Assembly (NCBI RefSeq): GCF_003334385.1
Contig: NZ_QOWN01000176.1
Length of the DNA stretch: 476 bases
From: Escherichia coli
GTDB taxonomy: Bacteria; Pseudomonadota; Gammaproteobacteria; Enterobacterales; Enterobacteriaceae
Strand: one strand, 5' to 3'
The first letter of the stretch is position 1. Each line of letters starts with the position of its first letter. This document shows positions 1-476 of the stretch, piece after piece. The notes under the pieces are model-generated. The model searched no databases. It was not told where the DNA came from and saw only the letters and a list, made by a program, of their open reading frames with translations. The position numbers and the translations under genes are program-made.

Positions 1-107
1 TCAACCGGCCCTTCGCTGATGGCATCGATCACACTCAGCAACTGCGTGGACTTCAGGTTGTCCTTCGCTTCGCGCGGGGTATGCCCCTTACTGCTTCCTT
101 TACCCAT
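1..107 (-). CDS. J: Tip attachment / host specificity protein J (central tail fibre), N-terminal 35 codons only; gene continues beyond position 1
   Basis: Hand translation of the minus strand from ATG (complement of 105..107) gives MGKGSSKGHTPREAKDNLKSTQLLSVIDAISEGPV with no stop before the window edge. This matches the N-terminus of lambda gpJ as I recall it. It lies directly downstream of gene I with a 60-nt spacer, as in lambda, and is preceded by GGAG with an 8-nt spacer. It is absent from the ORF track because it is truncated by the window. Confidence 0.85.
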   Translation of the reverse strand, partial: MGKGSSKGHTPREAKDNLKSTQLLSVIDAISEGPV

Positions 108-119
108 TCCTCACGCTCC
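108..119 (-). promoter_or_regulatory. Ribosome-binding site (Shine-Dalgarno) for J
   Basis: Minus-strand sequence immediately upstream of the J ATG reads TGGAGCGTGAGGA-ATG. GGAG (complement of 116..119) sits 8 nt before the ATG, which is good spacing; a second purine-rich GAGGA abuts the start codon. Confidence 0.6.
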
Positions 120-120
120 A

Positions 121-149
121 TAAATGACAAAACCGCCCGCAGGCGGTTT
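121..149 (-). other. Intergenic stem-loop followed by a U-rich tract on the sense strand (candidate weak intrinsic terminator or mRNA structural element between I and J)
   Basis: Perfect inverted repeat: 130..137 aaaccgcc and 142..149 ggcggttt, with a 4-nt loop at 138..141. On the minus (sense) strand this reads AAACCGCC-TGCG-GGCGGTTT followed by TGTCATTTA, i.e. a 5-bp GC core extended by A-U pairs, then an interrupted U-tract (complement of 121..129). Confidence 0.4.
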
Positions 150-167
150 CACATAAAACATTTTGCA

Positions 168-476
168 TCAGCGACCAATCACCACAACCTGACCACCGTC
201 CCCTTCGTCTGCCGTGCTGATCTCCTGAGAAACCACGCGTGACCCCACGCGCATTTCCCCGTACAGAACAGGCAGAACATTGCCCTGGGCAACCATGTTA
301 TCCAGTGAGGAGAAATAGGTGTTCTGCTTACCGTTATCCGTTGTCTGTGTACGGGGAGTTCTGGCTTTCGGTGCCAGCATCTGCGCCACACCACCGAGCA
401 CCATACTGGCACCGAGAGAAAACAGGATGCCGGTCATACCACCGGCCCCAATGGCTGCCCCCCATGCTGCAAGGGT
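168..476 (-). CDS. I: Tail assembly protein I (lambda gpI-like), C-terminal 102 codons plus stop; 5' end lies beyond position 476
   Basis: The 89-aa ORF in the track (MTGILFSLGASMVLGGVAQMLAPKARTPRTQTTDNGKQNTYFSSLDNMVAQGNVLPVLYGEMRVGSRVVSQEISTADEGDGGQVVVIGR) matches the C-terminus of lambda gpI as I recall it. The same frame stays open upstream of the ATG at 435..437 to the window edge, encoding ...TLAAWGAAIGAGG before MTGIL, so that ATG is an internal Met and not the true start. Stop codon TGA is the complement of 168..170. Confidence 0.92.
   Translation of the reverse strand, partial: TLAAWGAAIGAGGMTGILFSLGASMVLGGVAQMLAPKARTPRTQTTDNGKQNTYFSSLDNMVAQGNVLPVLYGEMRVGSRVVSQEISTADEGDGGQVVVIGR

Follow-up and report, generated by a model that had tools for sequence, protein, structure and literature searches.

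A conserved two-helix hydrophobic module in the lambda tail tip protein gpI and its proposed role at the outer membrane

gpI of lambda and its counterparts in related particles

The hydrophobic helices of gpI, a tail tip protein of phage lambda, have been described before. Using TMHMM, Goulet et al. 2020 (PMC7291167) placed two transmembrane helices at 68-91 and 96-118 (190-residue numbering), which correspond to approximately 101-124 and 129-151 in the 223-residue numbering used here. Xiao et al. 2023 found gpI 135-223 as a trimer in the tip lumen, forming a tripod under the coiled coil of gpH 818-842. They named gpI the 'insertion protein', and noted a possible interaction of 137-GILFSLGASMVLGGVA-152 with the outer membrane. 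The virion holds three copies of gpI (PMC12617516; Xiao et al. 2023).

In the closed state of Ge and Wang 2024 (PMC11101478), gpI was resolved from residue 101 as two helices (H1 and H2), a plug (159-175) and strands running through gpJ. The three copies lie within the closed tip, with H1 and H2 beside the C-terminal coiled coil of gpH and above the plug, which blocks the channel, while the C-terminal strands are clamped in gpJ. Binding of gpJ to LamB makes the hub domains swing outward and the plug disassemble; H1 and H2 are displaced from their site and vanish from view, so that gpI in the LamB-bound open state was visible only from 167 onward (PMC11101478). The same authors noted that H1 and H2 are predicted by TMHMM to be transmembrane, and proposed their insertion in the outer membrane. 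The residues that follow H2 are directed at the membrane in the open state, and the tip is close to it (PMC11101478, PMC12617516). A 2025 study of Ur-lambda (PMC12617516) agrees, and refers to 'strongly predicted transmembrane domains'.

The PDB entries with gpI are 8IYK and 8IYL (closed), 8XCG (open), 9E7M (Ur-lambda) and 8K35; the gpI of the DNA analyzed here is the same protein, with I164T as the only change in the part covered (122-223). In 9E7M, chain Ic has a valine at I138 (in H2), whereas chain Ia and lambda keep the isoleucine.

Two 2026 preprints on F-type pyocins reported the same module in a gpI homologue (F7 pyocin, PMC12874032). The tip plug protein of the F7 pyocin (THIP, PA0640, PDB 25VF) and PDB 9L9P are homologous to gpI (E = 8.5e-18 and 6.3e-21, respectively). 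Like gpI, they have a ubiquitin-like domain, two hydrophobic helices, a plug and strands in the same order, and they retain its hydrophobic motifs, with GASM(M/V)LGGV(A/M)QML present in both. The F-type pyocin helices encircle the tape-measure C-terminus, and TMHMM calls them transmembrane (PMC12874032). However, these are bactericidal particles and not phages, and the turn between the helices is shorter than in lambda. Removal of the N-terminal domain has been shown for PA0640, whereas for lambda gpI it is a prediction.

Phage T5 is also comparable. As in lambda, a trimeric plug (pb3) contacts the C-terminal coiled coil of the tape-measure protein and closes the tube. As in lambda, a hydrophobic stretch with the length for two transmembrane helices is proposed to enter the outer membrane after receptor binding and to form a channel. 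However, this stretch consists of 46 residues of the tape-measure protein pb2, whereas its lambda counterpart is on gpI. The T5 plug, one domain of the hub protein pb3, refolds to a beta-hairpin membrane anchor, and this part of the two systems is not homologous. The relation between gpI and T5 is one of function, and not of family.

The hydrophobic segment flagged by an earlier note on this DNA is already known, having been predicted in 2020, visualised in 2023-2025 and extended to F-type pyocins in 2026. Its rediscovery from sequence therefore adds nothing new. The TMHMM prediction, the structure and the comparison with tail-tip assembly that the note had suggested as checks were all in print, and the TMHMM outcome was two transmembrane helices.

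The window and its genes

We observed that the 476-base window (i.e. the whole stretch of DNA analyzed) was the reverse complement of phage lambda 15136-15611, with 99.6% identity, and that Escherichia phage PhiR30_1 matched it at 100% (DNA matches). Genes I and J are annotated under these matches, in the order L-K-I-J. The minus strand of the window codes for gpI 122-223, followed by a 60-base spacer and codons 1-35 of gene J. The translation of 476..168 on this strand is TLAAWGAAIGAGGMTGILFSLGASMVLGGVAQMLAP followed by KARTPRTQTTDNGKQN..., with the stop at 170..168. The run of approximately 36 small and hydrophobic residues that the earlier note placed at 369-476 was exact in its translation (TLAAWGAAIGAGGMTGILFSLGASMVLGGVAQMLAP), and represents the uncharged residues 122-157 of gpI.

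Alignment with reference lambda revealed two base differences, both in coding sequence and neither in the flagged segment. Base 349 leads to I164T in gpI, within the published plug (159-175) and outside the hydrophobic segment, and base 5 leads to I35V in gpJ. The identity with lambda gene I and the location of the gene among the tail genes, between K and J, make the protein a member of the gpI family, and full-length gpI matched PHROG 32 (E = 4.5e-83). NCBIfam had no family for gpI. The features of the window are given in Table 1.

Table 1. Features of the 476-base window, with residue numbers of the 223-residue gpI
Feature	Window positions	Strand	Basis
Flagged segment, gpI 122-157, the last 36 residues of the run 99-157	369..476	-	Translation; mapping to full-length lambda gpI
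C-terminal end of hydrophobic helix H1, gpI 122-128 (H1 starts at ~101, outside the window)	456..476	-	AlphaFold2 helix 97-129; published closed-state model from residue 101
Inter-helix turn, gpI 129-135	435..455	-	Gaps in homologues, low conservation, low pLDDT
Hydrophobic helix H2, gpI 136-157, with the motif G143-A-S-M-x-L-G-G150-V-A-Q-M-L	369..434	-	KD19, conservation, AlphaFold2, cryo-EM
Published gpI plug, residues 159-175, closing the tail-tip lumen	315..365	-	Ge and Wang 2024 (PMC11101478); DNA alignment
gpI 176-223, beta-strands and loops through gaps of the gpJ hub domains (beta-sheet augmentation)	171..314	-	Published structures; conserved residues
Stop codon of gene I	168..170	-	ORF list; translation
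Start of gene J (central tail fibre), ATG at 107..105, first 35 codons	1..107	-	Annotation under match; alignment

The annotated starts of gene I were inconsistent: it has 223 residues in lambda (L001 2638-3309), against 190 from a GTG in PhiR30_1 (L002 1237-1809). As annotated, the lambda gene overlaps K by 103 bases. In most homologues, as in the Pfam domain, the first residue corresponds to lambda M14, and a start at V34 would delete the first beta-grasp strand of gpI in the AlphaFold2 model.

The I-J spacer contains a hairpin at window positions 129-149 (sense strand minus), AAACCGCC-TGCG-GGCGGTTT followed by TTGTCATTT, which, judged from its sequence, resembles an intrinsic terminator. 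Window 175..105 folded as RNA with an energy of -22.9 kcal/mol (z = -2.3). A consensus terminator scan of the window did not report this hairpin. Rfam, run on the whole window, gave a chance-level match only (E = 0.23, far below the gathering score) and none for the hairpin, and a promoter scan of the window found no promoters. Two terminator-like matches at 446..429 and 287..273 (minus strand) lie inside the gpI coding sequence, and were set aside as coding by-products. The first coincides with an inverted repeat at 429-446 (minus strand), GCCGGTGGTATGACCGGC then ATCCTGTTTT, within the codons for GAGGMTGILF; this is most likely a by-product of GC-rich Gly/Ala codons. Two overlapping minus-strand ORFs (334..465 and 179..412) were rejected for want of support; a frameshifted relative of gpI, P0144, reads that alternative frame.

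Composition, conservation and structure of the hydrophobic run

The 36 residues of gpI 122-157 include 8 Gly and 8 Ala (G+A 44%), and no D, E, K, R, H or N. In full-length gpI the charge-free run is longer, extending over the 59 residues 99-157, and is cut by the window edge. What the earlier note saw is the window-cut end of this 59-residue feature. When gpI was shuffled 5000 times, the longest charge-free run had a mean length of 24 and never exceeded 56. The share of glycine plus alanine is 45% in residues 102-157 and 47% in 100-157.

We further estimated the hydropathy of the run using KD19, the 19-residue Kyte-Doolittle mean, for which the usual membrane-helix threshold is 1.6. The run has two lobes, each peaking at 1.78. 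As in a transmembrane hairpin, two stretches of approximately 19 or more residues were over the threshold, with no D, E, K or R in 99-157. For comparison, the segments of an established membrane protein, the lambda S holin, reached 1.5-1.6, below both gpI lobes. The stretches 113-147 and 695-729 of lambda gpH were also weaker than the gpI lobes, with KD19 of at most 1.59. A tape-measure stretch of the T5 pb2 type was rejected as the family of the segment, since the segment is in gpI and gpH goes no higher than this value.

The Eisenberg mean hydrophobicity of the lobes was 0.59-0.66 and the hydrophobic moment was low (0.10-0.25), which is the pattern of a membrane helix and not that of an amphipathic surface. 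On the Hessa biological hydrophobicity scale, the best windows of 19 residues had crude sums of +1.5 and +2.4 kcal/mol; these sums are marginal, and do not clearly favour membrane insertion.

Among 1.84 billion representative proteins searched, 3166 were relatives of gpI. We aligned 46 near-full-length relatives, with 32-60% identity to gpI, giving 47 sequences in all. A segment of 40-63 residues with KD19 of at least 1.6 was kept in 46 of the 47; the exception was P0144, a frameshifted copy that reads an alternative frame. Charged residues made up 1.7% of the conserved hydrophobic segment, as compared to 21% in the rest of the protein. G108, G143 and G150 were invariant, the last two standing one heptad apart in H2, and the motifs QI(V/I)LGAxLIAA(S/A)F and GASMxLGGVAQML recurred in the alignment.

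Mean column conservation was 0.54 for H1 and 0.52 for H2, with 0.47 for the ubiquitin-like domain. The variable parts were the turn (0.25 over 125-135) and the plug (0.28 over 159-175). The turn varied in both length and sequence, columns 129-134 having gaps in 21-42 of the 47 sequences. We also looked for one-sided conservation of H2 and found none; all helical faces were conserved (moment p = 0.80). The lobes are followed by a conserved C-terminal strand region (F176, N181, G186, P190, G194, G199, S204), in which G186 and G194 were invariant. The earlier note had described a polar C-terminal tail here; the sequence is indeed polar, but it is not loose, and consists of the structured plug (159-175) and of strands that pair with gpJ.

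The GxxxG/AxxxG-like spacing that the note had pointed out does not survive comparison with shuffled sequences. Such pairs are present, but they carry no information beyond composition: the segment has 16 small-xxx-small pairs, where shuffling of its residues gives 14.2 +/- 1.9 (p = 0.25), and 2 GxxxG motifs, where shuffling gives 2.5 +/- 1.3. The literal GxxxG motifs of lambda (G127/G131 and G133/G137) lie mostly in the non-conserved, gap-rich turn. The helical moment gave no one-sided pattern of small residues in either helix (p = 0.85 for H1, 0.73 for H2). The segment resembles transmembrane glycine-zipper and GxxxG motifs in being rich in Gly, Ala and Ser, and in the literal motifs at 127-131 and 133-137. 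Unlike them, it has no enriched spacing and no one-sided pattern, and its motifs fall mostly in a variable turn. A glycine-zipper or GxxxG packing motif was accordingly rejected, given the spacing and the lack of one-sided conservation or one-sided small residues.

AlphaFold2 was run on the gpI monomer with the homologue alignment. The beta-grasp domain was confident (pLDDT 94-98 over 11-90), while the helices 97-129 and 136-155 were predicted at low confidence (pLDDT 50-72), with pLDDT below 50 at 129-136. Two helices joined by a short turn, as in a transmembrane hairpin, were thus seen both in this low-confidence model and as H1 and H2 in cryo-EM, where the models of H2 run from residue 133-135 onward. 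The C-terminal half was unfolded in the monomer; this is expected, since its strands fold only against gpJ.

The earlier note had proposed a membrane-associating or helix-packing segment, and this description is borne out by the published cryo-EM packing of H1 and H2 and the published TMHMM predictions, with which our hydropathy, conservation and AlphaFold2 results agree. The segment was not found to be the buried core of a soluble globular domain. The note had also considered the composition unusual for a tail assembly factor. The composition matches the known biology, but the label 'assembly factor' is out of date, because three gpI copies are in the virion.

Packing in the closed tip and proposed release to the membrane

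We consider it likely that gpI has a conserved module of two hydrophobic helices (H1 at about 101-128 and H2 at about 134-158), with the flagged segment as its second half, and that this module is packed and then released; we infer that it inserts. Before infection, H1 and H2 would serve in packing and hold the tape-measure C-terminus in the tip, and such a packing role would explain the requirement for gene I in tail assembly. After release, they may insert in the outer membrane as three helical hairpins, directly beneath the opened tip. Once inserted, the hairpins would fix the tail in place, and might also form the walls of the first channel section, through which gpH and then the DNA would leave. 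Since gpI from 167 onward stays bound to gpJ, both ends of each hairpin could remain on the phage side.

Alpha-helical insertion in an outer membrane that contains lipopolysaccharide is unusual. For H1 and H2, membrane insertion is a proposal from vanished density, and we see the case for and against it as roughly balanced. The invisibility of the helices in the LamB-nanodisc map is the sole observation of the open state, and disorder would also explain it (PMC11101478). The in situ resolution was insufficient to settle whether H1 and H2 reside in the bilayer (PMC12617516).

The helices might instead serve in packing only (i.e. they would be buried with the gpH coiled coil and, after the trigger, become disordered or leave with gpH, and never be in a membrane). 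H1 and H2 are resolved beside gpH in the closed tip, and the open state shows just a loss of density. H2 is conserved on every face, including the two invariant glycines one heptad apart. This conservation, with no variable lipid-facing side, is more readily explained by protein packing than by a role in the membrane alone; the marginal Hessa sums point in the same direction. However, 59 uncharged residues, kept in 46 of 47 sequences, are more extreme than the cores of ordinary helical bundles, and the lobes exceed the lambda holin segments in hydrophobicity. The residues after H2 face the membrane in the open state, with the tip near it, and the analogous two-helix hydrophobic stretch of T5 has membrane density. 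We therefore regard packing without any membrane stage as unlikely.

Another reading, that of Iyer et al. 2006, is a Gly-rich, low-complexity linker that only tethers the ubiquitin-like domain to the C-terminal domain. The high G+A content fits with this, as does the Pfam model, which covers 14-97 only. However, the stretch is helical in both cryo-EM and AlphaFold2, and H1 and H2 are conserved like folded domains, with invariant glycines and recurring motifs; linker-like behaviour is confined to residues 125-135. The conservation of the lobes shows this stretch of gpI to be a module kept by the family, rather than a low-complexity linker. Together with the solved structures, it refutes the linker for H1 and H2, and we give this reading very little credence.

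It is extremely improbable that the helices are an anchor in the producer cell (entering the inner membrane during synthesis, with tail tips assembling at the membrane), for apart from the predicted transmembrane helices nothing favours it, whereas the helices sit within the proteinaceous lumen of the assembled tip, the lambda tail assembly literature examined describes no signal sequence or membrane step, and the ubiquitin-like domain could instead keep the precursor soluble.

The preferred reading, of a module that is packed and then released, can be extended to the N-terminal domain of gpI, which lies outside the window. In the full-length lambda protein, PF06805 (Lambda_tail_I) matched residues 14-97 (E = 2e-28), and both this match and the AlphaFold2 model assign gpI a ubiquitin-like beta-grasp domain of the TAPI family. 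Iyer et al. 2006 predicted cleavage by the gpK JAB peptidase behind the C-terminal glycine of this domain, and processing of PA0640 was reported in 2026 (F-type pyocin preprint).

Across gpI 96-101 (L001 2923-2940, outside the window), G96 was present in 45 of 47 sequences and G101 in 39 of 47. In lambda, the ubiquitin-like domain is immediately followed by a pair of glycines (GG, 100-101). These conserved glycines resemble a ubiquitin-type processing site. The published closed-state model (8IYK) starts at residue 101.

It is conceivable, though we hold it only tentatively, that the ubiquitin-like domain is a removable solubility tag. The gpK JAB peptidase would cut at G96 or at G100-G101, virion gpI would start at about 101-102 with H1 as a free N-terminus, and on LamB binding three such hairpins would form a six-helix assembly in the outer membrane, with which the DNA channel begins. 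Pieces of this idea are already in print, namely the 2006 prediction, the processing of PA0640 in 2026 and the start of 8IYK. In the supplementary mass-spectrometry data of Xiao et al., gpI is represented by one unspecified peptide (9.87% coverage); these data hence cannot show whether virions contain the N-terminal domain.

We also observed many proteins of 335-390 residues (P0009, P0013, P0014, P0017, P0019 and others) that join an NlpC/P60 domain (PF00877, as in gpK) to PF06805. These joined K-I proteins could be true fusions, as noted by Iyer et al., or frameshift artefacts across the K/I overlap.

What our analysis adds is modest: the module is family-wide at the sequence level, the GxxxG spacing is meaningless, and the gpI stretch is stronger than any in gpH. 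How the DNA of siphophages (phages with a non-contractile tail) crosses the outer membrane is not fully settled, and the helices of gpI are one of the named channel candidates in lambda. The biological importance of these hydrophobic helices thus lies in their being a candidate for the outer-membrane part of the lambda channel.
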